This document shows positions 1,788 through 47,910 of a stretch of DNA of 64,000 nucleotides, piece by piece (position 1 is the stretch's first letter; each line of letters starts with the position of its first letter). Source of the DNA: Firmicutes bacterium UBA4882 (GTDB taxonomy: Bacteria; Bacillota; UBA4882); assembly GCA_002399265.1 (NCBI GenBank), contig DHDG01000039.1, positions 33,847 to 97,846 on the forward strand, given 5' to 3'. The position numbers were made by a program, and so were the translations under genes. Under the pieces are notes generated by a model. It did no database searches. It saw only the letters and a program-made list of their open reading frames with translations, and was not told the DNA's origin.

Positions 1788-1911
1788 TTGCGTCTGCGCC
1801 CGCAATTGGCCCGACGAAATTCCTTTTTTTACTGTCTGGAAAGTCGGAAAGACTATCAGGCCGCTACCATATGATTAGAAAGGAACATTTATGGAAGAGG
1901 AGCGGTGAGCC

Positions 1912-2994: not shown

Positions 2995-3031
2995 AATTTA
3001 GTCGTTTTCAAAACCAGAGGTGATTACCGCC

Positions 3032-4210
3032 ATGTTCAGGTACAGTAACACCACGTTCGGGTTCAGTAATGTGTCATCGTCAAAACCATGTCATGTAAAT
3101 ATCGTCGGGCCGGTATTCGAGCCTACCGGCTACGCGCAGTTGACCAGAAAACTAGCCATGGGGTTGGACGCCGCGGGCATTGCTGTCAGGATCGGCCCTA
3201 TCAAATGGGGAGATGCACCAGAGGGCGTTGATTCCGCCACACGCCTCCGGCTGAATCGCCTGATCGGGGCACCGCTGGCGCAACGCATCACGATTCATAT
3301 CGGGCCACCAGATTTGTATCGTATTCCGGTCGCCGGGTATAGTATCCTGTTCGCTATGCTGGAATCCGACCGCATTCCAGCCCATTGGGCATCAGTCTGC
3401 AATGGCTTCAACGAGATCTGGGTTCCTACCGCATTTAACAAAAGTACTTTTGTCGCTGGCGGGATACGCCCCGGCAAAATCAGAATCGTCCCTTTGGGAG
3501 TGGATCACAGGCTGTTTTTACCACCCGCGGCTGGAACGCGTCCGCATCATCCGTTTACATTCCTGTCAGTGTTCGAGTGGATTCCGCGTAAAGGTTATCA
3601 TTGGCTCATTACAGCGTTTGCACGCATATTCAGCTCGAAGAACGTTCGCTTAGTGCTTAAGGTCCAGAAAAACGCCGGTTATCTGGACTGCCGCACCCAA
3701 ATTATCGCGGAAATCGAATCGCTCTGCAGCCAGGCTGGAAAAACGACCGCTGCACGGCAAATTGAGGTAATCAGCGAGATACTCAATGATAGCGCCATGG
3801 CTTCATTATACGCCCATGCAGATTGTTTTGTCCTGCCCAGCAGCGGGGAGGGGTGGTGCTTCCCCATCGTGGAAGCAGCGGCCGCCGGTCTGCCACTGAT
3901 TACAACTGATTGGGCTGGCCCGGCCGCTTATCTTGACAGAAACAATGCGTACCTGATCCCGGTTAAGAGAATGGTTCCGGCTGGCACAGGCGATCCGTAT
4001 CAGGACTTTCTATATGGCGGCAGCCAGTGGGCAGCACCGGATCCGGAAGTATTGGAACGCGCTATGATGGAAGTTTGGCAAAACCCTGCCTTAGCATTTG
4101 TCCGAGCCGATTCCCAGCGTCAACATATTTTAGGCAATTTTTCCTGGGAATGCGTCATACTAAGGGTAACAGGCCATATCAGAGAGATTCACGGAAATAT
4201 GTCGCGATGA
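3032..4210 (+). CDS. Group-1 glycosyltransferase
   Basis: GT1 C-terminal motifs are present (FVLPSSGEGWCFPIVEAAAAGLPLI). The ATG at 3032 is preceded by AGAGGTG. The track ORF begins at a GTG at 3020. Confidence 0.8.
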   Translation: MFRYSNTTFGFSNVSSSKPCHVNIVGPVFEPTGYAQLTRKLAMGLDAAGIAVRIGPIKWGDAPEGVDSATRLRLNRLIGAPLAQRITIHIGPPDLYRIPVAGYSILFAMLESDRIPAHWASVCNGFNEIWVPTAFNKSTFVAGGIRPGKIRIVPLGVDHRLFLPPAAGTRPHHPFTFLSVFEWIPRKGYHWLITAFARIFSSKNVRLVLKVQKNAGYLDCRTQIIAEIESLCSQAGKTTAARQIEVISEILNDSAMASLYAHADCFVLPSSGEGWCFPIVEAAAAGLPLITTDWAGPAAYLDRNNAYLIPVKRMVPAGTGDPYQDFLYGGSQWAAPDPEVLERAMMEVWQNPALAFVRADSQRQHILGNFSWECVILRVTGHIREIHGNMSR

Positions 4211-4223
4211 GGAGTGGCCGGGC

Positions 4224-5288
4224 TTGAAGAAAATTTTATTTTTATGCCGAGATCGTCTGACAACCAATCGGGCAGGGGACACCATCCAGATCGAGCAAAC
4301 AAAGCAAGCTCTGGAACGACTAAATGTCGAGGTGGACCTGATGACAACGTCCCAAGCTGAAAAGCCGGGTGCTTTTGTGGGACGTTTTTATGACGGAATC
4401 CACTTGTTTAATTTGATCCCGGTGGAAGAGACCTGGAGACAAGCCAGAATTGCAGATAGGCTTGGCATTCCATTCGCTCTGTCAACGATTTACTGGAACA
4501 TCGAGGAATACTTGCAGAAAGGCGGAGAACGGAGCGCCTCAGCGAAGATTTGGTGGCGTCAGGCCCAAACAATCAGACGGCTCCTGGCAGACAGCGCTCA
4601 AATACTACTGCCCAATTCACTGGCAGAAAAGGAGCTGCTCCTTACGGATTTCGGGGAAGATCTGGCCTGGAAAATGCATATTGTTCCCAATGCCGTAGAC
4701 CTGACGTTATCGGAAAACAGCCCTGAGCGATTCCGCACCCAGTTTGGCGTCAAGCGGCAATTTGTGCTCAGCGTGGGACGGATTGTGCGCCGCAAGAATC
4801 AGCTCGCGTTAATCCGCGCTTTGCAGAGTACTAATTTGCAGCTTGTTCTGATCGGTCCGGTCAATGATGCGGACTATTATCGCGAATGCCAAGCAGAAGC
4901 AAGCGACAAAGTGCGTTTTATTCCCGAGTTATCTTCGCAAATGCTGGCGTCCGCCTATGCGGCCGCCCGCGTCCATGCCCTGGTAAGCTGGTATGATACT
5001 CCAGGCCTGGTATCTTTGGAGGCGGCTTTGATGCAGTGTCATATTGTCACTACCGATCGCGGTCCTACCAGAGAGTATTTTGGTGATGATGCTTTTTATT
5101 GCGCGCCGGACTCTCCAGAGTCGATTAAAAATGCGGTGCTTAATGCCTGGAAAGCTTCTGCCAACGATCAATTGCGGGACAAAGTCATCAAAAACTACTC
5201 GTGGCAAAACTCAGCAGCAGCAACTTTGAAAGCCTATGATCATTTTGAAAAAGCAGGCGTGAAGACACGCCTGCTTGAGGAGGGATAG
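4224..5288 (+). CDS. Group-1 glycosyltransferase
   Basis: A GT1 C-terminal domain is present (LSVGRIVRRKNQ...SWYDTPGLVSLEAALMQCHIV). The start is TTG with an upstream GGAGTGG. Confidence 0.8.
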   Translation: MKKILFLCRDRLTTNRAGDTIQIEQTKQALERLNVEVDLMTTSQAEKPGAFVGRFYDGIHLFNLIPVEETWRQARIADRLGIPFALSTIYWNIEEYLQKGGERSASAKIWWRQAQTIRRLLADSAQILLPNSLAEKELLLTDFGEDLAWKMHIVPNAVDLTLSENSPERFRTQFGVKRQFVLSVGRIVRRKNQLALIRALQSTNLQLVLIGPVNDADYYRECQAEASDKVRFIPELSSQMLASAYAAARVHALVSWYDTPGLVSLEAALMQCHIVTTDRGPTREYFGDDAFYCAPDSPESIKNAVLNAWKASANDQLRDKVIKNYSWQNSAAATLKAYDHFEKAGVKTRLLEEG

Positions 5289-6010: not shown

Positions 6011-6496
6011 TTAGGGATCGCAACCGAAGAACTGAAATACTGTCTGCCCAGGGGCAGGGCCGCTTGAAAATACACCACATTGGCCTGTGATGACATCAAG
6101 CTGCTCCAGGACGCTAACCTTCACCAGCACATGAGCGACTACTTTTTCGCATAAGAAGCCGTTGACCAGCTGGAAGTCGGTAAATACATCCTGCAGGAAC
6201 AGTTCTACGATTTGACCTGGAGTGGCAGCAGGAATATCGCATGCCGCACAAAACGGAATATCCTGAGCGATATGTCTGACAGTGTTGGTAGAGTCAACCC
6301 AGAATATTTGTTTGTGAACGAATCCCTGCAATACTACTTTGCCAGGGAAGAGATGATGGACGATATTAGTTAACGTGGCGACAATGCGATCCACCTTAAT
6401 GGCACCCGGCAATGCGAGAGCCGGCGCCTCTTCCACAATTTGAGCGATGCATTCGCCGACTACTCGTTCAGCCTTAATACGGGCTTTCTTCCACAT
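6011..6496 (-). CDS. Hypothetical protein, paralog 2 of a tandem pair
   Basis: The ORF is homologous to 5296..5778 along its full length, with the same RBS and the same MWKK start. Confidence 0.6.
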   Translation of the reverse strand: MWKKARIKAERVVGECIAQIVEEAPALALPGAIKVDRIVATLTNIVHHLFPGKVVLQGFVHKQIFWVDSTNTVRHIAQDIPFCAACDIPAATPGQIVELFLQDVFTDFQLVNGFLCEKVVAHVLVKVSVLEQLDVITGQCGVFSSGPAPGQTVFQFFGCDP

Positions 6497-6615
6497 TCGT
6501 GTCACCTGCCTTTCTGATTTCAGCTTATGCTGGCGATGGTCCTAAGTTTCGGGACAGCAGACCAACTTAATGCGCAAAGTGCTTTTAGCCGGACCGAGGC
6601 TTTGGTGTCGGGGCC

Positions 6616-7083
6616 TTAACGCCTGGATTCTAGTCCCGGGGGCGATGAACGGGCTCCTTTGCAATGAGGCGACCGGCGAATGGCAACATAATCAGGCACC
6701 TGCCAGGATGCTCTGGCGATCTGCATGCCATTTTCGAGAAAGACTTCAAAATTGATCAATTCCTTATAGAAGAAACTGCTGTCAAGGGCGGCTGCAAAGG
6801 TCGTTTCCGGAACTGGTTGGGCTATTATTACAGCTTCATGCCCCCGATAATAGACAAACAAGGGTCGAAAGCCATAGCAAGCCAAGATAATGCGGTCTGG
6901 AGGCCATTGCCATTGACCCTGGCTTTGGCTTGGGCAGTTTGCTTCATCGCGAAACTGAGCAAGGGTGGCGAAAACGCTAATACCGGATTGCTTGTTCTCA
7001 TTGCTGTATTCTAAAAAGGATTCCGGATGTAAAGGGATGTACTCGACAGCAGGGAATGGGCAGATTTGACGGGGAACATTCAA
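6616..7083 (-). CDS. Hypothetical protein downstream of the anti-sigma factor gene
   Basis: A 155-aa ORF with a weak RBS. A 116-aa ORF on the opposite strand overlaps it and cannot be excluded. Confidence 0.3.
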   Translation of the reverse strand: MNVPRQICPFPAVEYIPLHPESFLEYSNENKQSGISVFATLAQFRDEANCPSQSQGQWQWPPDRIILACYGFRPLFVYYRGHEAVIIAQPVPETTFAAALDSSFFYKELINFEVFLENGMQIARASWQVPDYVAIRRSPHCKGARSSPPGLESRR

Positions 7084-7209
7084 ATTGATCGCCTCCGCCG
7101 TGTAGTTTATTGCATCCTATGCTCAAATCCCAAAAATGGTTCAGTCACAAAAAATAGGCTGTTCATTGCCGAACAGCCTCAAAAGAATGGGGGATATGAG
7201 TTTACGAGA

Positions 7210-7788
7210 TTACCTATATTGCCCGGAAGGGAAGAGGTTAAGCTCATAGAATCCGGAGGAGGTATCGTCAAAAATCGTCGCAGGATTCTGACCGGCAACT
7301 ACTGACTTGATACTCCACGCCGAGGAAGAGCCATTACCAAGAGTTACCGGAAAATAATAGTGCCGATCTGTAAAAGGCGGGGCTTCTGTCGGAGAATCTG
7401 ACACCACTTGCACCTTGCGCTGCGGATTCTCTTGCGCGTAGCCATCCGGTTTGGCGTTGCGGACAAGTCCGTTCATTGAGAAAATCCCGATGAGCGCCGC
7501 CGCGGCAGCCAACATGAGACCCCGGCTGATCACTTTATGATTACCTGGCACAAATTCTATTGTTACGGAATGGCTTAATTCTTCTTTTACCAATGCTGAG
7601 AAATCATGATAAGGTTTGATGGATTCCAGGCGACCCAACAAACACCGAACCTCTTTCAATTGATCCAGCAAATCGTTGCATTGCCTGCAACTGACCAGGT
7701 GCTGGCGCACCTGCCGTTTTTCTTCAGCATCAAGCTCGTCATCGATAAAAGCCGACAACAGATGTGAAAGACGTGTACAATCCATCAT
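7210..7788 (-). CDS. Anti-sigma factor, zinc-binding (ZAS-type HxxxCxxC) with one transmembrane segment
   Basis: The N-terminal helix MMDCTRLSHLLSAFIDDELD plus the HLVSCRQC motif are typical. A TM segment follows (LMLAAAAALIGIF). GAGGAGG lies 7 nt upstream of the ATG at 7788, and the gene starts 4 nt after the sigma factor stop. Confidence 0.75.
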   Translation of the reverse strand: MMDCTRLSHLLSAFIDDELDAEEKRQVRQHLVSCRQCNDLLDQLKEVRCLLGRLESIKPYHDFSALVKEELSHSVTIEFVPGNHKVISRGLMLAAAAALIGIFSMNGLVRNAKPDGYAQENPQRKVQVVSDSPTEAPPFTDRHYYFPVTLGNGSSSAWSIKSVVAGQNPATIFDDTSSGFYELNLFPSGQYR

Positions 7789-7792
7789 CACA

Positions 7793-8383
7793 CTACCTCC
7801 TCTCACTACTGGAGGCTAAATAGGGCTGGAGTAATTCCCGCAGCTGCCTGCGCCCCCGGTGAATACGGGAACGAACCGTACCAATCGAACAATTTAAAAT
7901 GTGCGAAATCTCCTCATATGAAAAACCTTGCACGTCGCAGAGTATAATTGCGGCGCGAAACTCGGGTGACAGTGTTTTCAATGCCTTGGCGAGAACCCCC
8001 TGAAACTCCAAGCTTTCATAATCCTCAACTGGTCCCGCCGAATTGTCCGCAAGCTCACGCGTAATATCGCCCTCACTGGTACGTATGGGATTATCAAGTG
8101 ATTCCTGACGAATTTTGCGATTCTTACGTACATGATCCAGATAAAGATTATGAATGATACGGTATACCCAGCGGTCAAAACATGTTCCGGGAGTAAACTT
8201 GTCGTAATTCTTATAAGCCCGATAGAATGCCTCCTGAGTCAAATCCTTGGCCTCTTCGGGGTCGCCGGTCAGCCGGTAAGCAAAGTTGTACAGAGCGCGC
8301 TCATGCGTTTGCACCAGTTTCTCAAAAGAATCCCAGCCGTTTTCAAGACCAGTCGGCAATGAGAGCGCTTTGGATTGCAGCAT
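7793..8383 (-). CDS. ECF-family RNA polymerase sigma factor (sigma-70 regions 2 and 4)
   Basis: Sigma region 2 (DLTQEAFYRAYKN) and region 4 (EEISHILNCSIGTVRSRIHRGR) are present. The gene is directly followed by the anti-sigma gene. Confidence 0.85.
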   Translation of the reverse strand: MLQSKALSLPTGLENGWDSFEKLVQTHERALYNFAYRLTGDPEEAKDLTQEAFYRAYKNYDKFTPGTCFDRWVYRIIHNLYLDHVRKNRKIRQESLDNPIRTSEGDITRELADNSAGPVEDYESLEFQGVLAKALKTLSPEFRAAIILCDVQGFSYEEISHILNCSIGTVRSRIHRGRRQLRELLQPYLASSSERR

Positions 8384-23702: not shown

Positions 23703-23726
23703 TACTCAATCATCTAAAGCACAAAG

Positions 23727-23767
23727 AACCCGCAGAAGCTTGAGCCTCTGCGGGTTCGTCATTTTTC
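23727..23767. terminator. Bidirectional rho-independent terminator between lexA and the convergent surE-side operon
   Basis: The stem gaacccgcagaag/cctctgcgggttc has U-rich flanks on both strands. Confidence 0.55.
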
Positions 23768-23804: not shown

Positions 23805-24008
23805 TTACTCCCTGGAATCGCCTTCGGGATGATCGTTGCTAGATGAGTCGTATATGATAATGCGGTAATTTGTGCCGTCCAGTGTTAATCCAAAAATCAA
23901 ATCCCGGTCTTTGAGGGTTTTGTTCAGGAATGTCACTAGTTGGTGCGTTTCTCCTTTAAGACGAAATGACTTTTCGCCTAAAATCGGAAGCTTGGTGTGC
24001 TGCGTCAT
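23805..24008 (-). CDS. Small hypothetical protein (67 aa) translationally coupled to surE (ATGA overlap)
   Basis: The ATG overlaps the surE TGA stop. No homolog is recognised. Confidence 0.45.
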   Translation of the reverse strand: MTQHTKLPILGEKSFRLKGETHQLVTFLNKTLKDRDLIFGLTLDGTNYRIIIYDSSSNDHPEGDSRE

Positions 24009-24874
24009 GGTGTACCTCCCGAAAGGTCGTCTACATTAAGAGCAGACCCATACGTGTTTTGGGCGTTTTTGGCGCTAGCGCCGGTCGGCTGTTTGAAAGG
24101 AACCGTAGCAAAACACGCTTCATCAATGACCTTACTGACGGCCGGTATGATATCCGCACGCGTCAGGTCAAATTGAAGCGGTGTCACAGACACTTTGTTC
24201 TGAAGGATAGCATCAAGATCGGTATCTTTTTCGCTGTTCATAACCGGCTCTCCGGCAATCCAGTAGTAGACTTTTCCCCGGGGGTCGACCCTCCTCTCAA
24301 TCACTTTGCTGTATTGGCGTCTTCCCAAACGTGCCACTGCGATGCCAGCAAGTTCCTCAGATCGCACTCCTGGGACATTAATGTTCAACAGCGTATTCTG
24401 TGGTAAAGGGTTTTTCAGCATAACAGCGGCAATTTCGGCGGCAACTTCTGCTGCCAACTCGAATCCGTCTCCAGAAAGGTCACAGAGCGAGACAGCCATC
24501 GCCGGAAAGCCAATCAGCGTGGCTTCAATGGCGGCTGATACAGTCCCGGAATAAAGAACATCTGTGCCTAGATTAGAGCCACGGTTAATGCCCGAGATTA
24601 CCAGATCCGGTTGCTCTGGTAGCAGCGCCCCTTCAATCGCCAGCTTGACGCAGTCTGCAGGTGTGCCGTCGACTTCCCAAGCCTGGGCCGCACCAGGAAT
24701 TTTGCGTTCTAACATACGTAGCGGGCGATGCAACGATATTGCATGCCCGCATGCACTCTGTTCGCGATCTGGAGCGATAACGTAGACTTTTCCCAGTTGT
24801 GAAATTCGATTACACAAAATATGCAAGCCTTCGGAATGGATGCCATCGTCATTCGCCAGTAGAAAAACAGCCAT
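24005..24874 (-). CDS. surE: 5'/3'-nucleotidase SurE
   Basis: The N-terminal motif LLANDDGIHSEGL is present, with full-length SurE similarity. Confidence 0.9.
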   Translation of the reverse strand: MAVFLLANDDGIHSEGLHILCNRISQLGKVYVIAPDREQSACGHAISLHRPLRMLERKIPGAAQAWEVDGTPADCVKLAIEGALLPEQPDLVISGINRGSNLGTDVLYSGTVSAAIEATLIGFPAMAVSLCDLSGDGFELAAEVAAEIAAVMLKNPLPQNTLLNINVPGVRSEELAGIAVARLGRRQYSKVIERRVDPRGKVYYWIAGEPVMNSEKDTDLDAILQNKVSVTPLQFDLTRADIIPAVSKVIDEACFATVPFKQPTGASAKNAQNTYGSALNVDDLSGGTP

Positions 24875-25530
24875 TATAAGTTTCTCACCCGTACTTTCAA
24901 AATTCCCTCAACATCTTTTAGTTCCCCAGCCAGTTGTGCAACCCCTGATCCACGTCCTGTTACATGTAGCGTCATATTAGCTTCTCCTTGATCGTCAGGT
25001 TCGATATTCACGTCCCGGATACTGAAATGCAGATTGCCAAGGACAACTGCAATAGCTCCCAATTGACCGGGACGATCCAGGATCCGGCACTCAATGATCA
25101 AAGTTTTCGAAGAAACAATATTTCTCTCGGCCTTATCCAGCAGCGTCAGGGTGCCTACAGCCATAAAGGCCGTAATCACAGCAGGAAGATAAAAACCGCT
25201 TCCCACCGCCAGACCAATTCCAGCAACCACCCAAAGACTCGCGGCAGTAGTCAGACCCCTGATGTTGGCACCTTCACGCATAATTGTGCCAGCTCCCAAG
25301 AAGCCAATTCCGCTAACCACCTGGGCTGCCAATCGAGCTGGATCGCGGGCTGTACCAAATTCGGGAAACGCATAGGCCGACACAATCATAATCAAGGCCG
25401 AACCGACACAAACGAGAATATGTGTGCGCAATCCCGCAGGTCGTCCGTGGCTTTCGCGCTCCAGTCCTATAAAGCCGCCCAAAATGCCGGCGCTAATCAA
25501 ACGGGCGATAATCTGCCAGTTATTGCCCAC
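24874..25530 (-). CDS. mgtC: MgtC/SapB-family membrane protein
   Basis: The MgtC signature ARLISAGILGGFIGLERE and an ACT-like C-terminal domain are present. The stop overlaps the surE start by 1 nt. Confidence 0.8.
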   Translation of the reverse strand: MGNNWQIIARLISAGILGGFIGLERESHGRPAGLRTHILVCVGSALIMIVSAYAFPEFGTARDPARLAAQVVSGIGFLGAGTIMREGANIRGLTTAASLWVVAGIGLAVGSGFYLPAVITAFMAVGTLTLLDKAERNIVSSKTLIIECRILDRPGQLGAIAVVLGNLHFSIRDVNIEPDDQGEANMTLHVTGRGSGVAQLAGELKDVEGILKVRVRNL

Positions 25531-25582: not shown

Positions 25583-27346
25583 TTATTGTGATAGATTTTG
25601 AATAAAATAACCAAACATCGCAGGCGTTATTCCGGGAAACGCTCTGCAAAGAGCTTCTATATCGATGGTATTGCTCTTAGCAAAAACGCGCAGTTGCTCC
25701 AGTGTATTTTCAATCTCAGGAATGGTCGAACCGCCAAGCGGGGTCAGGGTATTATTGCTCCATTTCAGTACCAGCTGGGACGATTGAAGCCAAAGGTTAG
25801 GATCAACCATTTCATCAATCAAGACAAGCTTGGGTGAAAGTGCTGCCAGCAACTCACATGACTCAGTATTTTGAGAATCCAGTAAAAACAGTGATGGCTT
25901 ATCCAGAAACTCCAATGCAATAGCAGGGACTGGCGCGTTCTTTGTCTTATTAATCCCTTGCAGCAGTGCAATGCTGAACCGGTCAGCGGCAATTGCTTTT
26001 CGCAGGCTTTTGGCCAAATCAGCGCGGGCCTCGGGAGAATCAGCATTCAGTGTGAGCTTTGCTAACAAACCTAAAAGTGACTCCAATTCCGATTGGATGC
26101 GACTTAATTGGAACTGCACAACTACCTTTTCCTGATCGGCAACCAGACCGCCATATTTGCCAGAATATCTGTTCAATAAATCTGACAGACGGCTCAGACT
26201 TTTTTCATATTTTCGCTGGGCCTTAGACGGGCTACTCTTGCCAGGATCCTTAAGCAGTTCACTTTCAATTTTAATGGTCTTTGATAGTGCCTTATAGACT
26301 TTTCTATTATCGAGAAACAGCGCCGGGTTAAACTGAATGGCCGGAACAGGCATTGCTTTTAGCCGACCTAAATCTTTAATAAGCGCATTCTCTTCACCCT
26401 TGAGTTTTCCATATTGATCAAGCAAGACCAAATGTTGTTCAAGAGTTTTGATTTCCTTTTCCAGGGAATCAAGCACTTCTTGCCTGAATGATAACTGCTG
26501 CCAGACCTGAACAAGCTGCTGCGATAGATCATATAGCTCTTTTTCTCCGCCGTAATAGGCAGGCGGATCCATCTGAGACAGACAGTCTTTTAAAGTGCCA
26601 ACAATTGGACCTGACATGACACAAGCCACAAATTTCTTGCGTTCATCTTTGAGAGAGAAGGACCATTTTATCAATGCAGCGGCGATTTCGGGGAGCGGAG
26701 CTGAATTCCAGTTCAGAGGCAGATATTTGTTTTTGAGTATAGCAACCTGCTGCTCAGTGATTTCTTTACCGACCAGCTGTGCAAAGCAGTCCGGTGAATG
26801 CGCAGGTACAACTTGAGGTACTGTGGCCCCGGAGAAAAAACTTCCGACATTCTGATTGCCCGCCAGAGTTTTGGAACCAGCCATGTCGTTCATGTTATTT
26901 AGAAAAGCAGTATAATCGCTTTTGGGTAACTCAAATTGCAGGACATCAGAAATCTCCTGATTACCCGTATTATCCAGCAGGTTCTGATGATCATACCCCG
27001 GAATTATTATTTCCCAACGCATCGGCAGCTGCTGCCCATATGCTGACATTAAATCGAAAATGTCATGTGAAAGCTTAAAGCAATGTATCACACAAATAAC
27101 GGTGCCCTGTCCGCCTGGGTGCGCGACAGGGCCACCGCATTCAAGCACTGTGTCACCGGCGACTAAGTAAACTGTTTTGTTCTTTTCGGCCCCGGTGATC
27201 TTTTTTTTGAGTAATGAGTTTAATTCATCACGGACTTTTTCATCTGAATCAATTGACGTTGCCCCAAGAATACTACGCAATTCGCTCCAGGATGCATGAT
27301 CAAATGTCAAGAAATAGTTGTCCGTGGATTGTCCTAAATTATGCAA
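25583..27346 (-). CDS. Hypothetical 587-aa soluble protein (N-terminal alpha/beta region, central coiled-coil-rich region); third gene of a cryptic three-gene operon
   Basis: No recognisable domain or nucleotide-binding motif. The ATG is preceded by GGGGGG 12 nt upstream. The gene follows gene B after a 60-nt spacer without a terminator. Confidence 0.6.
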   Translation of the reverse strand: MHNLGQSTDNYFLTFDHASWSELRSILGATSIDSDEKVRDELNSLLKKKITGAEKNKTVYLVAGDTVLECGGPVAHPGGQGTVICVIHCFKLSHDIFDLMSAYGQQLPMRWEIIIPGYDHQNLLDNTGNQEISDVLQFELPKSDYTAFLNNMNDMAGSKTLAGNQNVGSFFSGATVPQVVPAHSPDCFAQLVGKEITEQQVAILKNKYLPLNWNSAPLPEIAAALIKWSFSLKDERKKFVACVMSGPIVGTLKDCLSQMDPPAYYGGEKELYDLSQQLVQVWQQLSFRQEVLDSLEKEIKTLEQHLVLLDQYGKLKGEENALIKDLGRLKAMPVPAIQFNPALFLDNRKVYKALSKTIKIESELLKDPGKSSPSKAQRKYEKSLSRLSDLLNRYSGKYGGLVADQEKVVVQFQLSRIQSELESLLGLLAKLTLNADSPEARADLAKSLRKAIAADRFSIALLQGINKTKNAPVPAIALEFLDKPSLFLLDSQNTESCELLAALSPKLVLIDEMVDPNLWLQSSQLVLKWSNNTLTPLGGSTIPEIENTLEQLRVFAKSNTIDIEALCRAFPGITPAMFGYFIQNLSQ

Positions 27347-27406
27347 ACGGACTTCCCCCCTAAATGGGTGAGGCCAGAATGTTGAATCGTTATTGCTCAG
27401 TCAGAC

Positions 27407-29221
27407 TCATTGGCCGCCTTTTAATTTAGCAATCATATCATCGATTTGCTTCTGGGACATGATCGGTTCTCCCTCATCTTTTGCCGGTCCTGCCATTATA
27501 GGAGCAGTTGTCTTGCCAGACGTGACTGGCAAAGGCGCCATCCCCATCCGGTTAGTTTGGAACGGCTGAACCTGCGACTGGCCCAAAGAAGGAGTCCTTA
27601 GACCAGGTTGACTTGTGGAAGGTTCCGGCATGGTTCGATTAACCGGCTGTGCGTTAAATGGCCGCGGTTGTGGCGGTTGTTGCTGCTGTGGTTGTTCCGG
27701 CAGGAACGGCTGTGCCGGCAACACGCTTCTTTGAAATTGAGCCATCGTGTCCGGATTGGAGGGCACCTGCCGAGCAAAAGGCTGCGACAGCGAGTTCGAG
27801 TTCGAGTTCAAGTTCGAATCAGCAGGTTTAGGATCATCACTATCGTTATTAGGGGCAAACTGCCTGAAAAGGTCGTCAATCGATTTCTGACTCATTGATA
27901 CTGCACTATAAGAACTTGGCTTAATACGATTCCCGGCCACATCTTTCATTGAATCGTTCATAGCGCGGCCTTCAGACGATGCTGCAACCTCTGGAACGGA
28001 ATAACCGGGCTTTTTAAGCAGCCTATCCGCTACATCTTGGGAAACATCGCCTTCTACAGCATAACTTTCGCTATATTTAATTTTTACCTTACCCTTATCA
28101 TTATAATCGGCGCTACCAGCACTGGGTTCGGAAACCAACTTTTCTGAAACACTCTCGACGTTTTTGGTAGCTTCATTTTCTCTCGGAAACACCCAGCCAT
28201 CCAATATGTTATTGGCAGGCTGTGCGTTGGCGGTTTGTGCACTGGTATTGCCAGAAATGAAGGGAGCACTATTTGCTTTGACGTCCAGAGAAAAGAGCGA
28301 ATCGCTCTGCTCTTGTTCCGGTACGGCGCTTCCGTTTGACAAATCTCCGCCGACCGAAAGGTCAAAATGAAGCTCTTCAGTTTGCGGAGCAGATTGCGCG
28401 TTCATTTCGAAACCCGGCACCGAACTTGCACCAACCTCCGCTGGTATTGCTGCTTCCTTAAAGAAAACAGGAGCTTGCTCAGCTGCCGGCGTTGATGGCA
28501 TCACCGGTGTCGGTGCAACTGGCATCGCTGAGGCCACGAATTCGTCGAAAGCAGGCGCAGGATCTGATTCTACTACTGGTGACGAAGGAGCAGCTTTGAC
28601 AATTTCCACCCAAGGCTTAGGCTGCGGCGCAGAAGGCCTTTCGCTGACTACTTCAGCCACTGGAGATACTGCAGGTTTTACCATTGGGGCCGCTGCAGGT
28701 TGTACCACTGGCGGTGGAGCTGGCGCTGCTGCGGGTTGTGCTGGCCTTTCGCTTTTGTAATAATGTGACTCTGAGGCGGATTCCTCCGGAAAGAAAAAGG
28801 AATAAAGCGCTTCTGCTGAAGGCGTGGGAATAAATTCATCTTCAGGCAAAAGGATTTCCCATGAAGCTTTAATTAAAACGCCTTCATTAAAGGCTGTCAC
28901 TGCATCACCATCGGAAGTTTGACGGCAGGAATGCACTCTCAATACCGAACCGGTATCCTTACGCACGAGCGTACAAGGTAGCACAAAGCATCTGGATAGC
29001 AGCAGCAGGTTGTTGCCTTCTTTAATAGCCCAAATATCCGACTCCAGAGTTTTCTGCAGCGTTGTTCTTGGATCGGAGGTGCGCGGATCGATTGGTAATT
29101 GTTTCTTTACTTCAGCGGGAATTTGAAACAGGATGCGCATGAATCCGTTCCAGCTGGCTTCTGTAAATTGCAGAGAGACTTCTTGTTCAATGCTAAATTC
29201 TCGTCCATGAAGTTGTTGCAT
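27407..29221 (-). CDS. Hypothetical protein: ~170-aa N-terminal globular domain followed by a ~430-aa Pro/Ala/Gln/Ser/Asn-rich disordered region
   Basis: The ATG (MQQLHG...) lies 1 nt after the gene C stop, with GGGGGG inside the gene C 3' end. The low-complexity region is extreme (PAQPAAAPAPPPVVQPAAAP..., NSNSNS, QPQQQQPPQPRP). No TM segment. The track ORF starts 14 codons earlier. Confidence 0.6.
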   Translation of the reverse strand: MQQLHGREFSIEQEVSLQFTEASWNGFMRILFQIPAEVKKQLPIDPRTSDPRTTLQKTLESDIWAIKEGNNLLLLSRCFVLPCTLVRKDTGSVLRVHSCRQTSDGDAVTAFNEGVLIKASWEILLPEDEFIPTPSAEALYSFFFPEESASESHYYKSERPAQPAAAPAPPPVVQPAAAPMVKPAVSPVAEVVSERPSAPQPKPWVEIVKAAPSSPVVESDPAPAFDEFVASAMPVAPTPVMPSTPAAEQAPVFFKEAAIPAEVGASSVPGFEMNAQSAPQTEELHFDLSVGGDLSNGSAVPEQEQSDSLFSLDVKANSAPFISGNTSAQTANAQPANNILDGWVFPRENEATKNVESVSEKLVSEPSAGSADYNDKGKVKIKYSESYAVEGDVSQDVADRLLKKPGYSVPEVAASSEGRAMNDSMKDVAGNRIKPSSYSAVSMSQKSIDDLFRQFAPNNDSDDPKPADSNLNSNSNSLSQPFARQVPSNPDTMAQFQRSVLPAQPFLPEQPQQQQPPQPRPFNAQPVNRTMPEPSTSQPGLRTPSLGQSQVQPFQTNRMGMAPLPVTSGKTTAPIMAGPAKDEGEPIMSQKQIDDMIAKLKGGQ

Positions 29222-29222
29222 C

Positions 29223-30581
29223 TTAATTCCCCCCGCCAGGATTGATAAGAGGGTTAATATCACTCATAACCCAGAACTTTTGCAGACCGGGAGCCAGAAA
29301 CTCCCACCACCCGGAATCCTTGACGCCACTTCGATAACGATGTCGAACTGCAACCGCTGGAATATCATGACTCAATACCGAAAGCTTGCCGACATTCAAA
29401 TCTGATTCAGTGTAGATATTTGTTCCGGCCTTCAAATAGTCAAAAGCGATCTGATCCTGCTTTATCCAGCCATCTAGTTGTGAATTCTGTACGTAAAGCC
29501 ACGGTTCCTGCAAGGAGTCATAATCTCTTTCGAGAATATCCAGTTTTTCACCGGATTGAAAGCGACCCTGAGGATCCCCTCCGCCAACTCTCGGGAAAAC
29601 ATTGACAACGCCTTTGGCATAACCGCGGATTGTTGTAACCGAAAACTCCTCACTGATAGGCAGTCGCAACGTTTTTGCTATCTCAGGAGCAGTCTCCCCC
29701 ACCCAATACTTGGCGATATACCAGGCTTGCTGAAAATACATCGGTTTGAACTGGTAGGCCCCGAAAAAAACTCCACCAATAATCATCAGGACCAGAGCTA
29801 CCTTAGCCAACTTTGACGAAGATCTGCTTCTGGATCTGGATATAGACTTTGATTTGGCACGGCGTTCAAATCGTCTTTGGGCTGGCCGCGGCTCCGTTCG
29901 TGGACCGGTGCTGCACTCAAAAGCAGTTACGTGAAAACGCTCTAACTCAATTGAATCCAAGACTTTCGGAAACTTGCCGAAATAGGCGTCTAAATCGGAC
30001 GGTTTCAAGATCCTGTATGGAAAAGGCAAGAAATTATATTGCTTGTCTTGCGGAAAATCATGCAAAATTATGATGCTCGGTATAACATTGAGGGTTGCTT
30101 TTTTTACGCGTGCCTGTGTCCATTGGCAGACAGCGAGGATTGTTTCCTGCAACTCTGTTTTGGAATCAGCAAGATTCTGACCCTCTAAATCAGCCCTGTC
30201 AAATATAACGAAGATACCTGCAGAACCTGACGCAATAAGGGCCGGATCCCTTTTTTGGATAGACCAGTCATCCGGCATTTGTATCAGTTTCCCGGCTGCC
30301 TGAATTTTGGCTTGATGTTCAAATACCCACTGGGCATCCTGATCATTTTTCGAAAACAAAGCGATCATGAAAAGAGCAACTACAGCTAACAGAAATAAAA
30401 GCCCGCCCGCCATTGCGAATCTGAAATCAACAAACCCGCCAATGGCCAGGATTACCATAGCTGTTGTTATAACCAGCCCGCCGATTGAGATCAGCAACAG
30501 GAAATTGAAAATGCGGTTTTTCGGAGAAAAACCCTTAGCGGGTGAAACATCCGCTATAATGCTCGTCAATAACCCGGCCAA
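29223..30581 (-). CDS. Membrane protein with 3 TM helices: cytoplasmic NERD-like segment between TM2 and TM3, basic Ser/Arg-rich linker, extracytoplasmic LysM-like + SH3b-like C-terminal region
   Basis: The start is TTG after AGGTGG, 6 nt upstream. The motif GSAGIFVIFDRADLEG...W resembles the NERD core GIFVIEVK...W. The C-terminal GEKLDILERDYD...WLYVQNSQLDGWIKQDQIAF is SH3b-like. The segment GETAPEIAKTLRLPISE is LysM-like. Confidence 0.55.
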   Translation of the reverse strand: MAGLLTSIIADVSPAKGFSPKNRIFNFLLLISIGGLVITTAMVILAIGGFVDFRFAMAGGLLFLLAVVALFMIALFSKNDQDAQWVFEHQAKIQAAGKLIQMPDDWSIQKRDPALIASGSAGIFVIFDRADLEGQNLADSKTELQETILAVCQWTQARVKKATLNVIPSIIILHDFPQDKQYNFLPFPYRILKPSDLDAYFGKFPKVLDSIELERFHVTAFECSTGPRTEPRPAQRRFERRAKSKSISRSRSRSSSKLAKVALVLMIIGGVFFGAYQFKPMYFQQAWYIAKYWVGETAPEIAKTLRLPISEEFSVTTIRGYAKGVVNVFPRVGGGDPQGRFQSGEKLDILERDYDSLQEPWLYVQNSQLDGWIKQDQIAFDYLKAGTNIYTESDLNVGKLSVLSHDIPAVAVRHRYRSGVKDSGWWEFLAPGLQKFWVMSDINPLINPGGGN

Positions 30582-30699: not shown

Positions 30700-30729
30700 A
30701 AAAAAACAAGCCCGGGCTCTTCCCGGGCT
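30700..30729 (-). terminator. Rho-independent terminator after speH, upstream of the three-gene operon
   Basis: The stem gcccggg/cccgggc is followed by UUGUUUUUUU on the minus strand. Confidence 0.65.
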
Positions 30730-43320: not shown

Positions 43321-44058
43321 TTACGGGAACAGCACTCCCAAGACGCCAGCGGCAACGGCTAATACGATCGCGATAATGCTCCAGACACGAGCGTCTTTTT
43401 GCGCTTTTTCGGCATCTGCCTTGGCAGTTTCCAATTCGGAATTCAGCTGCGCTATTTCAGCGTCGTGTTTTTCATCCGCCGCTGCGGAATCCTCTGTAAG
43501 TGCGGCCACAGAATTCTCAAGAGCGGAAAGATCCGTTTCCATGCCTGTCAATTTTTGTTCTGCTTCGGTAACCCTGTTTTTGAGGGCGATGATTTCCTGC
43601 AAGGATTTGGCCATTTCATCCCGCACCTGACCGGTCTCTGTTTTCCAGGCTGCCATATCAGCACCCATCGCAGTGCGATCACGCTCGTATTGTGCGAGCG
43701 CTTCTTCCAGATTTTTTGTGCGCAAAGAAAGAGCTACTAGTTCTTGCCGAAATTCACCAGTTAGCCGGCGCATCAGATCAGCGTCTTCCTGATTCATGCT
43801 AATGGAACCCGCCACTGAGTCACCGAGCAGTCTTGAGACAACCACGGCCAACGTGAAACGATCGACCGGTTGGTTCCCCCTGAAAGTATTGTCAGCGTAT
43901 AATCCTAAGTACCCTTCTGAAACAAGCTTTTTCACGGCCTGGTACGCCCAATGGTTTGACTGGACATCCGCAATCTGCGGATCAGCCGCTGACGCGACAG
44001 CAGCTGTCGAAACTGCCAGGGTGAGTGCCAGTATGAGAGCGATCGACAAACGTTTCAT
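43321..44058 (-). CDS. SLH-domain protein with coiled-coil region and C-terminal TM anchor
   Basis: A signal peptide and an SLH motif (WAYQAVKKLVSEGYLGLYADNTFRGNQPVDRFTLAVVVSRLL) are present. The ATG at 44058 is preceded by AGGAGG. Confidence 0.7.
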   Translation of the reverse strand: MKRLSIALILALTLAVSTAAVASAADPQIADVQSNHWAYQAVKKLVSEGYLGLYADNTFRGNQPVDRFTLAVVVSRLLGDSVAGSISMNQEDADLMRRLTGEFRQELVALSLRTKNLEEALAQYERDRTAMGADMAAWKTETGQVRDEMAKSLQEIIALKNRVTEAEQKLTGMETDLSALENSVAALTEDSAAADEKHDAEIAQLNSELETAKADAEKAQKDARVWSIIAIVLAVAAGVLGVLFP

Positions 44059-44143
44059 GCCCGTACCTCCTGCCTTTTTATTCAATCTTATTTGGCATGC
44101 CGCCACTGACTGCTATGGCGCAATCAGCTTATGGCGCAACCTA

Positions 44144-46126
44144 CTATTGATCCTTATTCTCGCTGACTGCGGTGACTGGCACAGGTTTTCCAGACGGATC
44201 CAGCAAGCGCAGAACGGCACTCTGCATGGCCAGCGGACCGTTACCGCCGGACTTTCTCCTGACCCAAACCGTGGCAAAATTCTCAAACTGTTTGCCTGTC
44301 GCTGTGGAACGGGTAGCTTCCAGCAACACCGCGTTCCCTTCCATGACAGGCTCTCTCAGCCAAGATAAAACTTTGCCGTCTTGCACCATAAACCCGCCTC
44401 TTTGAACAGCCAGCAGTTCTGTATCCGAATCAAAAGTTACCCGCAGCGCGAGCTGGGACGCTTCTGGCAGATTGACCAGGTCAATATCCACTTGGTACCA
44501 TCCTGGCCGTTCCGTGACCGGTGCAGAAACGCTCCTTATCTGACGAGGTAAATCAGGCCATTGAATCGCATTGGACCCAGAAATTACCTTGTTTTCATTA
44601 CATCCCGTCAAGATCTTGAACCCGGTAGAACCTACCCCACCCGAAGAAACAACGGACCAGCGTACCAACACTTCAGTGCCGGGGGCAAGTTTGCCAATAT
44701 AGCGGCGTGACGACTCTCCAGGGGCCAGTTCAATGCCGTTACCCGGAGCCAGCTCAGCCCAGGTATCAGTTGCAACATCTCCGCCATCATTGGAGACAAT
44801 CGCCTGCACTGCCACAGGATACGGTTCATATCGTCCCGTGACTGATTTAACCATAGGCGGGTCCAAGACCGTCAATCCCAGTTTGGGAGGGGCAATCAGC
44901 TTGATTTTGCGTTCGACGATGACCGGGTCACTTTCAAAGGCGTGACCGCGAACATTAATGGTTGCTGTCCCGGAGCCTACCGCTGTGAAAGTCCAAGCGG
45001 CTTGACGCGTTTCGCCCGGCTTTAGTGACCCAATATCTACTTTAATGGGGTTCAAAAGCCGCAATGAATTGGGAACGTCAATAGTCAGTGATACGTCACG
45101 TGCTACACCTTCACCGCGGTTTTCCAGATAGGCTAATACAATGTACTGCTCGGTAGTTCCCGACTGAACAGACGCCGGCGCGGTGACACCCAGTGTCAAC
45201 TCGCCCTTAGAAATGGTGACGCCACCCAGGCCATAATATGTTACCCGTGACAGAGCGGCTCCGGGAGGTAAATCCGTTGCATCCCACATTAGAGCTACGG
45301 CACTATCATATTCAAATTCACCAACTCTGGTAAAGTCTCTGCCCGCAATCAAGACGGGGTTCCATGGCTGATCCGCAAAGGTGCCCCAGTTGGAAAAGAA
45401 AAGACGATCAGGGGTGGTCAGCTCACCGCCGGCAAGTGTCCCCTGGGCGATGACTTTGGGCTCTTCCAGAGAATCAAAAGCCTGCCAGTATGACTGGATA
45501 GTTGAGCCCTGCGCGCCATAATCCGTAAGGATCTGTTTCTCGCCCATACGGAACGGAGCACCGTCATTTTCCCCAAGCATGGCGTCAATGCAAACCCGCA
45601 AACCGACTGAATGGTAGACTTGTCCTCTGTTCACCATGGTATACGCAATTCTGGCGGTATCCGGCAACCCGGTAGTTGGCCCGTCAACAATCGAGATGTA
45701 TTGCGTTACTTCCAGATCACCATAGCGCCACGCCGTGACAATTGCCCCGTCGCGCACTTCCGGTTTTTGAATCATCAGGCCGGTGGCCAACCCCTCGCCG
45801 GCACGCTTTGATACCGGACCGCCAAACGCGAACAATAAGCCGTTCATATTAATCGTGGTATAAGAGGTCCAGGGAAGAGGGCGGCCATAAATCAAAGGCT
45901 GGTTATCGTCGTCATCACGTTCAGGATCTCCGCCTGTTACATCAACCGCAAAACGGCCGCGCCCATCCGCGGTATTATTGACAAAAACCTTGATATATTC
46001 GTTTTCAATTGTCACCAAGGACTGGTCTTCCGCAGAAACCAGCGCACCCAATAAAAAGGCGACCGCAATTACGGCTGTCCAAAGCAGGGTAAATGAAGTA
46101 TACTTCTTCGCGTGTCTCATTCTCAT
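44144..46126 (-). CDS. Large secreted protein (660 aa, signal peptide, beta-rich; no recognisable catalytic motif), translationally coupled to tonB
   Basis: The ATG overlaps the tonB TGA (ATGA). The N-terminus is signal-peptide-like (KKYTSFTLLWTAVIAVAFLLGALVSA). The protein does not look like a TonB-dependent receptor (no plug, no C-terminal aromatic residue). Confidence 0.6.
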   Translation of the reverse strand: MRMRHAKKYTSFTLLWTAVIAVAFLLGALVSAEDQSLVTIENEYIKVFVNNTADGRGRFAVDVTGGDPERDDDDNQPLIYGRPLPWTSYTTINMNGLLFAFGGPVSKRAGEGLATGLMIQKPEVRDGAIVTAWRYGDLEVTQYISIVDGPTTGLPDTARIAYTMVNRGQVYHSVGLRVCIDAMLGENDGAPFRMGEKQILTDYGAQGSTIQSYWQAFDSLEEPKVIAQGTLAGGELTTPDRLFFSNWGTFADQPWNPVLIAGRDFTRVGEFEYDSAVALMWDATDLPPGAALSRVTYYGLGGVTISKGELTLGVTAPASVQSGTTEQYIVLAYLENRGEGVARDVSLTIDVPNSLRLLNPIKVDIGSLKPGETRQAAWTFTAVGSGTATINVRGHAFESDPVIVERKIKLIAPPKLGLTVLDPPMVKSVTGRYEPYPVAVQAIVSNDGGDVATDTWAELAPGNGIELAPGESSRRYIGKLAPGTEVLVRWSVVSSGGVGSTGFKILTGCNENKVISGSNAIQWPDLPRQIRSVSAPVTERPGWYQVDIDLVNLPEASQLALRVTFDSDTELLAVQRGGFMVQDGKVLSWLREPVMEGNAVLLEATRSTATGKQFENFATVWVRRKSGGNGPLAMQSAVLRLLDPSGKPVPVTAVSENKDQ

Positions 46127-46869
46127 GGCTGCGCTTCGCTCCTTTCCCACTGCTCGCTGCCCTGAAAAACAACTTTGACTTCGCCGCTGCGGAAAATGAG
46201 GGCGATCTTTATTTTCACAGGGAATGCCGGACGCGTATATTGCCATGCCTCTTTCAGAGCACGCAGTGAATAGGAATCCAGCCTTTGATCACCGGAAGCT
46301 GATAGCAGTACCACCTGAATCTCACCTTCCGGAGTCAACCTGACCTCTGTCAATACTTCTCCTTCTGAGCCTTCGTTCTGAGCATTTTTAGGATAAGTCA
46401 CCGGTTGACTGAGAACAAAGCCTTCCCCACTGCCGAGTCCCAGTCCCTTGTTTCCGCCTTGCGATGCACCGTTATTGCCGGCGCCCGATCCAGGCGAGCC
46501 AGGCGATGAATCAGACGGCACCGGCGGCACTGTGGAGCTATCTTGGGGCAATGTTTTGATCGGTTCATTAGTCTTGGGCTGCTGGGCGGTTTTTATTGGC
46601 GGGGATTCCTTTGGAGGTGGTTCTTTTTGCTGCGGCCGTTGTTGCTGTTCTTGAGCAGCTTCATTGACATTAATCTGCACAGCAGCAGTTTGCTCGGCGC
46701 GGCCGTCAGAAATCGTTGGACCCAGTTCGACAAAGCCGACCTCCAAAACTTCCATGCCGTTGCCTGCGGAAAGTCCTCCGCCAGGTACTGACGCCAACAG
46801 CAATAAGACTACATGCAGGATCAGTGATATGGTCCAGGAAATACCTTTACGCCAACCTGCGCTCATCAA
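46123..46869 (-). CDS. tonB: TonB-like energy transducer (TM anchor, Pro-rich spacer, TonB C-terminal domain)
   Basis: The architecture and the C-terminal domain pattern fit TonB. The gene follows exbD with a 4-nt overlap. Confidence 0.7.
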   Translation of the reverse strand: MMSAGWRKGISWTISLILHVVLLLLASVPGGGLSAGNGMEVLEVGFVELGPTISDGRAEQTAAVQINVNEAAQEQQQRPQQKEPPPKESPPIKTAQQPKTNEPIKTLPQDSSTVPPVPSDSSPGSPGSGAGNNGASQGGNKGLGLGSGEGFVLSQPVTYPKNAQNEGSEGEVLTEVRLTPEGEIQVVLLSASGDQRLDSYSLRALKEAWQYTRPAFPVKIKIALIFRSGEVKVVFQGSEQWERSEAQP

Positions 46870-47294
46870 TCAATCACCCCGTCATCGGAGGGACCTTGAT
46901 CCACGCGGCGTACACCCAGCGCAGGTCTTTCTGCTCCTCCCTCCCTAATCAGGTCCAGAGCGGCCACCAGGTCTTCGTATGCCACTTTGCGATCCGGATA
47001 CAAGACTACTTGCATCTGCGGGTTATCGATCAATGATTGCGTAACCCGCGCGGAGACTTCCGCAGCAGGAATCCGCAGACCTTCGATGAAATATTGCCCC
47101 TCGGTATCAAGCGCCACAACCAATTGCTCAATCTCAGCGACCGGGGCAGTGCTTGAGTCTGGAAGAGAAACCGGAATGGAAGCTGCTCCATTATCAAAAG
47201 TACCATAGATCACGAAAAAGAAGACCAGCATTACCATTACATCGATCAGAGGTACAATGTCAACCCTGGCTTTACGCTTCCAGTATCGAGCCAT
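46866..47294 (-). CDS. exbD: Biopolymer transport protein ExbD/TolR
   Basis: The N-terminus IVPLIDVMVMLVFFF is typical, and the size matches. Confidence 0.85.
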   Translation of the reverse strand: MARYWKRKARVDIVPLIDVMVMLVFFFVIYGTFDNGAASIPVSLPDSSTAPVAEIEQLVVALDTEGQYFIEGLRIPAAEVSARVTQSLIDNPQMQVVLYPDRKVAYEDLVAALDLIREGGAERPALGVRRVDQGPSDDGVID

Positions 47295-47910
47295 GGTTAC
47301 CCCTCCGATCTTTTAACATTGCCGAGAAATCAATTGTCTCACGTTCCAGCATCTCGGCGACGGATTCAGCGCGATGCACAAAATAGTTCATGGCCACCAG
47401 TGTAGGAATCGCAATAATTAATCCTGATGCAGTAGTAATCAGCGCTTCAGCAATACCCAAGCCAACCGATTCCATCCTGGCCATCGCCGAGGCTGCGCCA
47501 AGCAAGCGGAAAGTATTGAGAATGCCAGTAACAGTACCCAACAGTCCCAGAAGGGGCGCTGCCGTTACGATTGTGTCCAGAATGGAGAGCCCCGAAAATA
47601 ACTTTTTTCTTTCCAGACTGGCGGCCGCTTGCATTTCAAGCTCAGCATTTTCAGGATTTGCCGCTGCCAGGCCATTTGATAAAACCCGCATTACTGGACC
47701 GTCCGAATCGTTAAACAGTAGAACCGCTTCATTGGTAGCACCGGCGGCAATCAGCTTCCGGGCTGCTCTGAGACGATCCGATAATCCATTTTCCGTTTTG
47801 CGCAGCCGGACAAAAAAGATGATCCTTTCTACTATCACCGCCAGAGCCGTGACAGAACACAGCAACAGAGGATACATAACGGGCCCGCCTTTGGAAATTA
47901 TTGTGAACAT
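47272..47910 (-). CDS. exbB: MotA/TolQ/ExbB proton-channel protein
   Basis: Three TM helices and the conserved C-terminal helix region are present. RBS AAGGAGGA lies 7 nt upstream. Confidence 0.85.
   Translation of the reverse strand: MFTIISKGGPVMYPLLLCSVTALAVIVERIIFFVRLRKTENGLSDRLRAARKLIAAGATNEAVLLFNDSDGPVMRVLSNGLAAANPENAELEMQAAASLERKKLFSGLSILDTIVTAAPLLGLLGTVTGILNTFRLLGAASAMARMESVGLGIAEALITTASGLIIAIPTLVAMNYFVHRAESVAEMLERETIDFSAMLKDRRGNHGSILEA

Follow-up and report, generated by a model that had tools for sequence, protein, structure and literature searches.

What is the function of three adjacent genes that are kept together between speH and mgtC in an uncultured member of the Bacillota, and whose products can be placed in no described protein family? 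The genes, here called C, B and A, lie on the minus strand of a 64,000-nucleotide stretch of DNA (the window) from Firmicutes bacterium UBA4882 (assembly GCA_002399265.1, contig DHDG01000039.1, positions 33,847 to 97,846). A preliminary description of the window had placed three minus-strand genes here, 1 nt (C-B) and 60 nt without a terminator (B-A) apart, in a unit that begins after the speH terminator and runs into mgtC-surE; the open reading frames (ORFs; Table 1) and the spacings were confirmed, and no strong terminator is met before 23757-23726. We find that the three proteins belong to new families, that A and B carry a homologous N-terminal domain (N-domain), and that B ends in a long, predicted disordered tail with two copies of a conserved short motif. 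Tentatively, the three might form a scaffold anchored in the cell envelope.

Novelty and selection

Searches of A, B and C against Pfam, NCBIfam, PADLOC and PHROGs gave no match at threshold, and sequence profiles of A, C, the B N-domain, the A C-terminus and the C cytoplasmic domain returned only chance matches from the Protein Data Bank (PDB). Pfam scans at lenient E-values, carried out for each orthologue and each domain, yielded nothing but a sub-threshold likeness to SH3_3, and no domain common to C and A was detected. The lack of any recognisable family, already apparent in the preliminary description, thus stood up to profile searching, with no confident hidden Markov model (HMM) match placing the trio in known families. 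As judged by these searches, the families and the architecture of the trio are new, and no component fits a known family.

When compared with orthologues from two related loci (L001 and L003), the ratio of non-synonymous to synonymous substitution rates (dN/dS) was approximately 0.23 for C, 0.25-0.29 for B and 0.21 for A, against 0.07-0.13 for the flanking genes. Within B the N-domain gave 0.05-0.07 and the tail 0.36-0.38; the best-conserved parts of C and A are the outside domain and the C-terminal region, respectively. Reading frames are full-length, and starts and gene order are kept, in relatives down to 23% identity. The dN/dS values of ~0.2-0.3, together with co-conservation in all related loci recovered, indicate that C, B and A are genuine genes under purifying selection. 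Spurious or decaying ORFs without function might be suspected from the failure to find homologues outside one lineage and from the low-complexity sequence in B, but this is hardly credible given the overall ratios, the value of 0.05 in the B N-domain, the preserved frames, starts and gene order, and the confident fold model of that domain.

Distribution and inheritance

Genomic context was read for up to 10 kb on each side of every locus, in addition to the 64-kb window. A lack of co-conservation, which would have told against the preliminary description, was not seen: the order C-B-A between speH and mgtC is present in the window and in six other loci (L001, L003, L034, L030 and, in part, L002 and L031), of which L034 is located on an 878-kb contig. 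All readable loci have the common arrangement mutS-mutL-miaA-hfq-ynbB-speH-C-B-A-mgtC-surE-DUF4264, followed by lexA and a LysM gene. The trio proteins of L030 are 25%, 34% and 23% identical to those of the window, versus 57-87% for the flanking proteins, so that the co-conservation spans a deep divergence.

A word-indexed search of 5.8 billion proteins returned four clusters for A and four for C, with identities of 56-100% throughout, and the joint A/B N-domain profile found nothing in it beyond the lineage itself. When 1.84 billion representatives were scanned in full with HMMER and the A profile, three proteins came up, all from this lineage: the query's own cluster, P0009 (E 4e-22) and P0010 (E 2.5e-20), the last two being distant full-length A orthologues from the same kind of locus. 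No relatives of A were found among 185,579 GTDB species representatives, and no copies of the trio in phage records, plasmids or viral contigs. The trio is also missing at 26 loci from Bacillota metagenome-assembled genomes (MAGs) that were anchored on MgtC (at most 62% identical); these carry the ynbB-(speH)-mgtC-surE backbone, some with a SigH-like sigma factor gene in the slot. On the evidence of these searches the trio is confined to one narrow uncultured Bacillota lineage, and conservation across Negativicutes and Clostridia, for which the preliminary description had suggested a test, was not found. This distribution pattern points to vertical inheritance of a lineage-restricted insertion into an older neighbourhood, not to a mobile island; the cassette would have entered the conserved ynbB-speH / mgtC-surE neighbourhood at the base of this lineage. 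The GC content of the cassette resembles that of its flanks and there are no meaningful DNA tandem repeats within it; with these features and no phage, plasmid or viral-contig copies, a mobile origin was rejected.

The exact proteins occur on 39-48 public contigs each, and NCBI names all three 'hypothetical protein' in several third-party annotation (TPA) 'Firmicutes/Bacillota bacterium' MAGs. None of the GTDB species representatives has the locus or an MgtC above 62% identity, and the lineage or the region seems to be missing there. The closest MgtC relatives, at no more than 62% identity, come from unclassified Bacillota, Limnochordia and Peptococcaceae MAGs. The sigma factor gene in the ynbB/speH-mgtC slot of trio-less Limnochordia-like and other Bacillota MAGs encodes ~211 residues and is presumably SigH-like (motif ...AIKGTTRQKHIPLNSY...).

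Protein A and the N-terminal domain common to A and B

The N-domains of A and B are homologous (paralogous) by profile comparison: hhalign aligned them over 105 columns with a probability of 86.7% and an E-value of 4.4e-6. Six positions (L17, F19, W24, L59, C83 and W121) are invariant in the joint alignment, and the AlphaFold2 (AF2) models of both proteins have beta-alpha-alpha-beta4 secondary structure. The B N-domain, modelled from an alignment of eight sequences, reached a predicted local distance difference test (pLDDT) score of 84.6 and a predicted template modelling (pTM) score of 0.79, with elements in the order beta, alpha, alpha, four beta strands, alpha, beta, alpha. Foldseek placed toxins at the top, namely YoeB/ParE 6n90 (E 0.024, probability 0.80), RelE 2khe and RelBE2 3g5o, with no match below an E-value of 1e-3. 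The model thus suggests a RelE/ParE-like fold for the A/B N-domain, as a weak resemblance and not as superfamily membership, which we do not claim because a sequence signal and an antitoxin gene are both lacking, the domain belongs to large fusions and the shared residues are non-catalytic. No polar residue of catalytic type is common to the two N-domains. C83 and C99 of B (28925-28975) are invariant or nearly so across both N-domain families and may belong either to the core or to a site for metal or redox chemistry.

Beyond its N-domain, A has a helical part and a C-terminal region that is 81-82% identical to close orthologues, with P484, F487, P505, P536, G539, P571 and G572 invariant. The C-terminal region had no Pfam or PDB match at E-values up to 10 and is poorly modelled by AF2. 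A helix-hairpin-helix (HhH) or receiver (Response_reg) assignment for it was considered and dropped, with no Pfam or PDB match up to the same E-value and acidic residues that are not invariant. Searched against Pfam at E-values up to 1, A gave nothing beyond weak coiled-coil matches. The Foldseek matches of full-length A are regarded as coiled-coil noise, since the model has a pLDDT of only 47.8, and the matches to LmuB (E 0.014-0.033), SbcC (E 0.005), SMC and RacA (15 bits, cutoff 165) were read as composition artefacts. The JGI/IMG label on identical copies of A, 'regulator of replication initiation timing', has no model support and is likewise taken as a coiled-coil artefact.

The B tail and its repeated motif

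The 456-residue tail of B is acidic and fast-evolving (P 13%, A 12%, S 12%, Q 7%), with many indels and conserved islands. The only strongly conserved islands are two copies of one motif, the first internal and the second at the extreme C-terminus (Table 1). The internal copy reads MSQKSIDDLF in the window and LSQAAIDAML or LSQSTIDAML in distant orthologues, with Q445, I448 and D449 invariant in all six orthologues; in the C-terminal copy, for example EPLMSQNQIDALIASLKGGQ-COOH, the residues P586, Q590, I593, D594, L600 and G602 are invariant. Taken together, the Q, I and D of the motif are invariant in 12 of 12 instances, with the consensus [LM]-x-Q-x-x-I-D-x-[LMI]-[ILV]. A motif HMM scored 30-35 bits at the internal site and 33-41 bits at the C-terminal site, against no more than 5.7 bits at any other place in the translated ORFs of the window and loci (311,000 residues). 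Further conserved islands of the tail (27410-28340) are KIKYSEGYTVEG..D..D.LLKKPG, [ED]xLF[SRK][LW][DG], QPVNRTMPEP and QTNRMGMA.

The motif is similar to the CheY-binding peptides of FliM (LSQAEIDALL) and CheZ (ASQDQVDDLLDSLGF). When the motif profile was compared with 14 Escherichia coli flagellar and chemotaxis proteins, whose sequences came from an annotated genome, the top two scores were 10.8 bits for FliM residues 5-15 and 6.9 bits for CheZ residues 198-212. The likeness is suggestive only.

The preliminary description had called B a Pro/Gln-rich disordered protein and A a coiled-coil protein. For B, disorder is indeed predicted for residues 149-604, but this tail is rich in Pro, Ala and Ser, and residues 1-148 are folded; for A, only residues ~269-467 are helical or coiled-coil-like. 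That description had overlooked the N-domain common to A and B, and with it the folding of B residues 1-148 and the pair of conserved B motifs.

Protein C

Protein C is predicted to have a transmembrane (TM) hairpin, a cytoplasmic domain, a third TM segment and an extracytoplasmic domain; its orthologues are P0005-P0008 and L030:7171-8481. Residues 225-258, directly ahead of TM3, include 12 Lys or Arg, and by the positive-inside rule residues 79-257 would therefore be cytoplasmic and residues 277-452 outside. The cytoplasmic domain, in which W85, D105, W106, G119, G122, W154 and K161 are invariant, has no Pfam or PDB match. The outside domain is 81% identical to that of L001, and four of five C orthologues have a sub-threshold match to SH3_3 (PF08239; best E 0.0015). 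Residues 336-375 are likely to resemble an SH3b domain, with membership unproven at these scores; no second, tandem SH3b copy is detectable in C.

A NERD domain (PF08378) in the cytoplasmic part was rejected, with no Pfam match at E-values up to 10 in five orthologues and with the candidate D-K-A residues of a D...ExK motif not conserved in L030. Weak matches of the TM hairpin to DUF4231 (E 0.19) and phrog_3093 were treated as matches to TM composition.

Gene layout and transcription unit

Orthologues of B begin at the identical MQQL... residue, and those of A and C likewise share their start residues. The longer GTG ORF of B (to 29263) is thus not the genuine start; the ATG at 29221 is preceded by a GGGGGGA Shine-Dalgarno sequence. 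C and B are translationally coupled, as judged from their junction, which is a gap of 1 nt in the window and an overlap of 4 nt in L030. A and mgtC are 52 nt apart without a strong terminator, and between the speH terminator and 23757-23726 only weak terminator-pattern matches were found on the minus strand. The terminators at 30729-30709 and 23757-23726 thus delimit a likely transcription unit C-B-A-mgtC-surE-DUF4264. The order A-mgtC-surE-67-aa ORF also occurs in L001, L002, L030 and L034. The 67-aa ORF has a 4-nt overlap with the surE stop and stops shortly before the downstream terminator; it is probably the final gene of the unit. An Rfam search upstream of the cassette found no RNA element.

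Table 1. Coordinates of the cassette, its protein regions and neighbouring features (window positions unless a locus is named; L numbers denote related loci).
Feature	Position	Strand	Description or basis
Gene C	29223..30581	-	452 aa, three-TM membrane protein; TTG start, AGGTGG ribosome-binding site
C, TM hairpin (TM1 ~25-48, TM2 ~55-78)	30348..30509	-	Kyte-Doolittle windows >1.6
C 79-257, predicted cytoplasmic domain, then Arg/Ser/Lys-rich linker	29811..30347	-	Positive-inside rule and conservation
C 258-276, TM3	29754..29810	-	Hydropathy
C 277-452, predicted extracytoplasmic domain with SH3b-like region 336-375	29226..29753	-	Sub-threshold SH3_3
Gene B	27407..29221	-	604 aa; folded N-domain and long tail, predicted disordered
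B 1-148, folded N-domain, RelE/ParE-like fold (predicted)	28778..29221	-	AF2 model, paralogy with A
B 149-604, variable tether, predicted disordered, with conserved islands	27410..28777	-	Composition, indels
B ~443-456, internal helical motif; in window MSQKSIDDLFRQF	27854..27895	-	Alignment and motif HMM
B 586-604, extreme C-terminal motif; in window PIMSQKQIDDMIAKLKGGQ-COOH	27410..27466	-	Alignment and motif HMM
Gene A	25583..27346	-	587 aa, soluble; TTG start, GGGGGGAAG ribosome-binding site
A 1-120, N-domain paralogous to that of B	26987..27346	-	hhalign, joint alignment
A 269-467, long helices, coiled-coil-like rod	25946..26542	-	AF2 secondary structure, pLDDT 57-75
A 471-587, conserved C-terminal alpha/beta region, ends in ...FPGIT... 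helix pair	25586..25936	-	Alignment
speH intrinsic terminator, upstream unit boundary	30709..30729	-	8-bp GC-rich stem, then T-run; kept in L001
mgtC	24874-25530	-	Downstream of A, probably co-transcribed
surE	24005-24874	-	Downstream of mgtC, probably co-transcribed
67-aa ORF, counterpart marked DUF4264 in related loci	23805-24008	-	ORF; kept in L001, L002, L030
Strong intrinsic terminator, likely transcription-unit end	23726..23757	-	14-bp stem, 9 GC pairs
Slot sigma factor genes in trio-less loci	L009:9142-9777, L012:9294-9929, L013:6620-7279, L017:9260-9895, L023:9066-9779

A possible scaffold and its alternatives

The reality of the genes, their co-conservation and orphan status, the domain layout, the paralogy of A and B, the fold resemblance and the conservation of the motif are what we observe at this locus. 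The cassette could, as a possibility that we hold only tentatively, specify an envelope-anchored scaffold. C would be its anchor, with the TM hairpin, cytoplasmic domain and TM3 leading to an outside SH3b-like region that holds to the cell wall. A and B would be cytoplasmic and use their paralogous N-domain for docking, either on each other or on the cytoplasmic domain of C; A would contribute a helical rod of ~200 residues for self-assembly and its conserved C-terminal domain, and B a disordered tether of ~450 residues whose two amphipathic-helix motifs capture partner proteins. These partners might be the RelE-like N-domains themselves, by analogy with the C-terminal helices of antitoxins on RelE/ParE toxins, or an external receiver-domain protein or MinD/FlhG-type ATPase, as with the FliM and CheZ peptides. 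We infer each protein-protein contact in this arrangement, and likewise the topology, the cell-wall binding and the scaffold role. Vertical inheritance at a single locus without mobile or defence signals fits a cell-biological role of this kind. A more specific version, a new cell-organising hub in which domesticated RelE/ParE-fold docking modules and a wall-anchored protein act with tether peptides that capture these modules, a response regulator or a ParA/MinD-type ATPase, is distinctly improbable.

Several results weigh against the scaffold. The FliM score of 10.8 bits corresponds to an E-value of ~3 at the size of the PDB, which is chance level database-wide, and an unbiased PDB scan with the motif profile returned lysozymes (15.9 bits) and unrelated proteins but neither FliM nor CheZ. 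The window C scores 15 bits against SH3_3, with a gathering cutoff of 27, and the full-length model of A is poor. Fast evolution of the trio is equally typical of conflict systems, and nothing in the 64-kb window indicates a partner or a process for it.

The same motif could instead belong to transmembrane signalling, in which C senses wall material, the B peptides recruit a CheY-type regulator or an FlhG/MinD-type ATPase and A acts as an adaptor. Of the flagellar and chemotaxis proteins compared, FliM and then CheZ score best with the motif HMM, which aligns exactly with their CheY-binding peptides; one copy is carried by a long linker at the extreme C-terminus, in the manner of CheZ; and both kinds of partner have precedents: the EIDAL motif binds CheY-P and the MinD-like ATPase FlhG (bioRxiv 10.1101/2022.04.21.489128), and CheY is bound by the C-terminal peptide of CheZ (Guhaniyogi et al. 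2006, as cited in PMC5242315). Signalling nevertheless appears unlikely to us, with scores at noise level for a database search, a PDB scan that brought up lysozymes, the EIDAL Glu not conserved in the B motif, and no receiver, kinase, flagellar or MinD-like genes in the 64-kb window or the loci read. We also doubt that the cassette serves sporulation or envelope morphogenesis, an idea already raised in the preliminary description, as a module that is switched on at a developmental stage and acts on the cortex, coat or outer envelope. The outside SH3b-like region of C, the diderm-type envelope genes of the window (SLH, TonB, ExbB, ExbD) and the SigH-like sigma factor gene at the equivalent position in relatives would suit such a role, and coat and morphogenetic proteins are typically fast-evolving, low-complexity and lineage-specific; on the other hand A and B have no signal peptides, the large loop of C is predicted to be cytoplasmic, the genes appear to be co-transcribed with mgtC-surE, and no sporulation genes were seen in the 64-kb window. 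A sporulation-sigma promoter, which the preliminary description had proposed to look for upstream of C, could not be recognised convincingly by eye, and the upstream region is poorly conserved.

The preliminary description had also raised the idea of a defence unit. In a system of the toxin or defence type the effectors would be the RelE/ParE-fold domains of A, of B or of both, restrained by other parts of the cassette and released on a membrane or wall signal sensed by C. RelE, ParE, HigB and YoeB toxins dominate the structural matches, an RNase site could in principle be made up of the B-specific conserved residues R77, H97, R100, E60 and E68, evolution is faster in the cassette than in the neighbouring genes, and A has the weak coiled-coil matches to LmuB and SbcC. 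However, the fold scores are low, the residues common to A and B are hydrophobic core and Cys rather than catalytic, each N-domain is fused to 450-470 further residues, and there is neither a small antitoxin gene nor a small conserved ORF beside A and B. PADLOC gave no significant match, with LmuB alone for the coiled coil of A and none for B or C. The cassette is, moreover, strictly vertical, occupying one core locus (the same in 7 of 7 loci) that is not island-like, with no copies outside the lineage among the 1.84 billion representatives, phages, plasmids and viral contigs. We consider this reading highly improbable, and a defence or mobile-element origin is disfavoured. The probability left after the scaffold and these rivals belongs to explanations not considered here.

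If the scaffold were correct, this lineage would have built a membrane-anchored organising complex from scratch, re-using a toxin-type fold for docking and helical peptides on a disordered tether for capture. The cassette would also define three new protein families, represented by C, by the N-domain of A and B and by the C-terminal domain of A. Orphan operons limited to one lineage are frequent among uncultured bacteria, and the practical weight of the cassette is limited for now by its restriction to one uncultured Bacillota lineage.

Other features of the window

Elsewhere the window carries core housekeeping genes (the pur operon, priA, def, fmt and rsmB). Genes of the SLH, TonB_C, ExbD and MotA/ExbB families at 43321-47910 (minus strand) suggest an envelope of the diderm type. 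Between the SLH protein (43321-44106) and the TonB/ExbD/ExbB cluster (46123-47910) lies a 700-aa ORF without a Pfam match (44144-46246, minus strand), which may encode an uncharacterised envelope or outer-membrane protein of a diderm Firmicute. At 6011-8383 on the minus strand, genes for a sigma factor of the extracytoplasmic function (ECF) type (7793-8383) and a zf-HC2 anti-sigma factor (7210-7806) precede two ORFs that have no Pfam match (6616-7083 and 6011-6505). Three GT4 glycosyltransferases and a sugar nucleotidyltransferase are encoded at 330-5288 on the plus strand; two of the three glycosyltransferases also match the 'GT4-conflict' Pfam model, which scores below the general GT1 models.

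Comparison with known systems

The N-domain model most resembles RelE/ParE toxins, and does so weakly. Those toxins are small stand-alone proteins (~85-115 aa) encoded next to an antitoxin, whereas here a domain of ~120-148 residues forms part of 604- and 587-aa proteins; it has no sequence match in Pfam, NCBIfam or the PDB, and L, F, W, L, C and W are what stays invariant between the A and B domains. For A, the likeness to Lamassu LmuB/SMC, SbcC and RacA is limited to the helical part, with no ATPase head and no partner genes. The likeness of C residues 336-375 to SH3b (SH3_3) wall-binding domains is sub-threshold; the region is predicted to lie outside, and no enzymatic domain is attached to it.

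The B motif has in common with the FliM and CheZ peptides that it would be a short amphipathic helix of the form [LM]SQxxIDxL[LI], and with CheZ that it lies at the extreme C-terminus behind a long flexible linker. It differs in that Gln, Thr, Ser or Ala mostly takes the place of the EIDAL Glu, and the rest of B is unrelated to either protein.

HubP/FimV, SpmX-PopZ and MapZ are envelope-anchored hubs that combine a domain for wall binding with a TM segment and an extended disordered region. They have no sequence relationship to the trio, so that the comparison is one of functional analogy only, and they differ from it in that the roles are here split over three proteins and that the module of C is SH3b-like rather than LysM or lysozyme-like. 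What the cassette would share with these hubs, by analogy, is a predicted outside wall module, a membrane anchor, a long disordered acidic or Pro-rich region with short partner-binding motifs and, putatively in A, a self-associating helical component.

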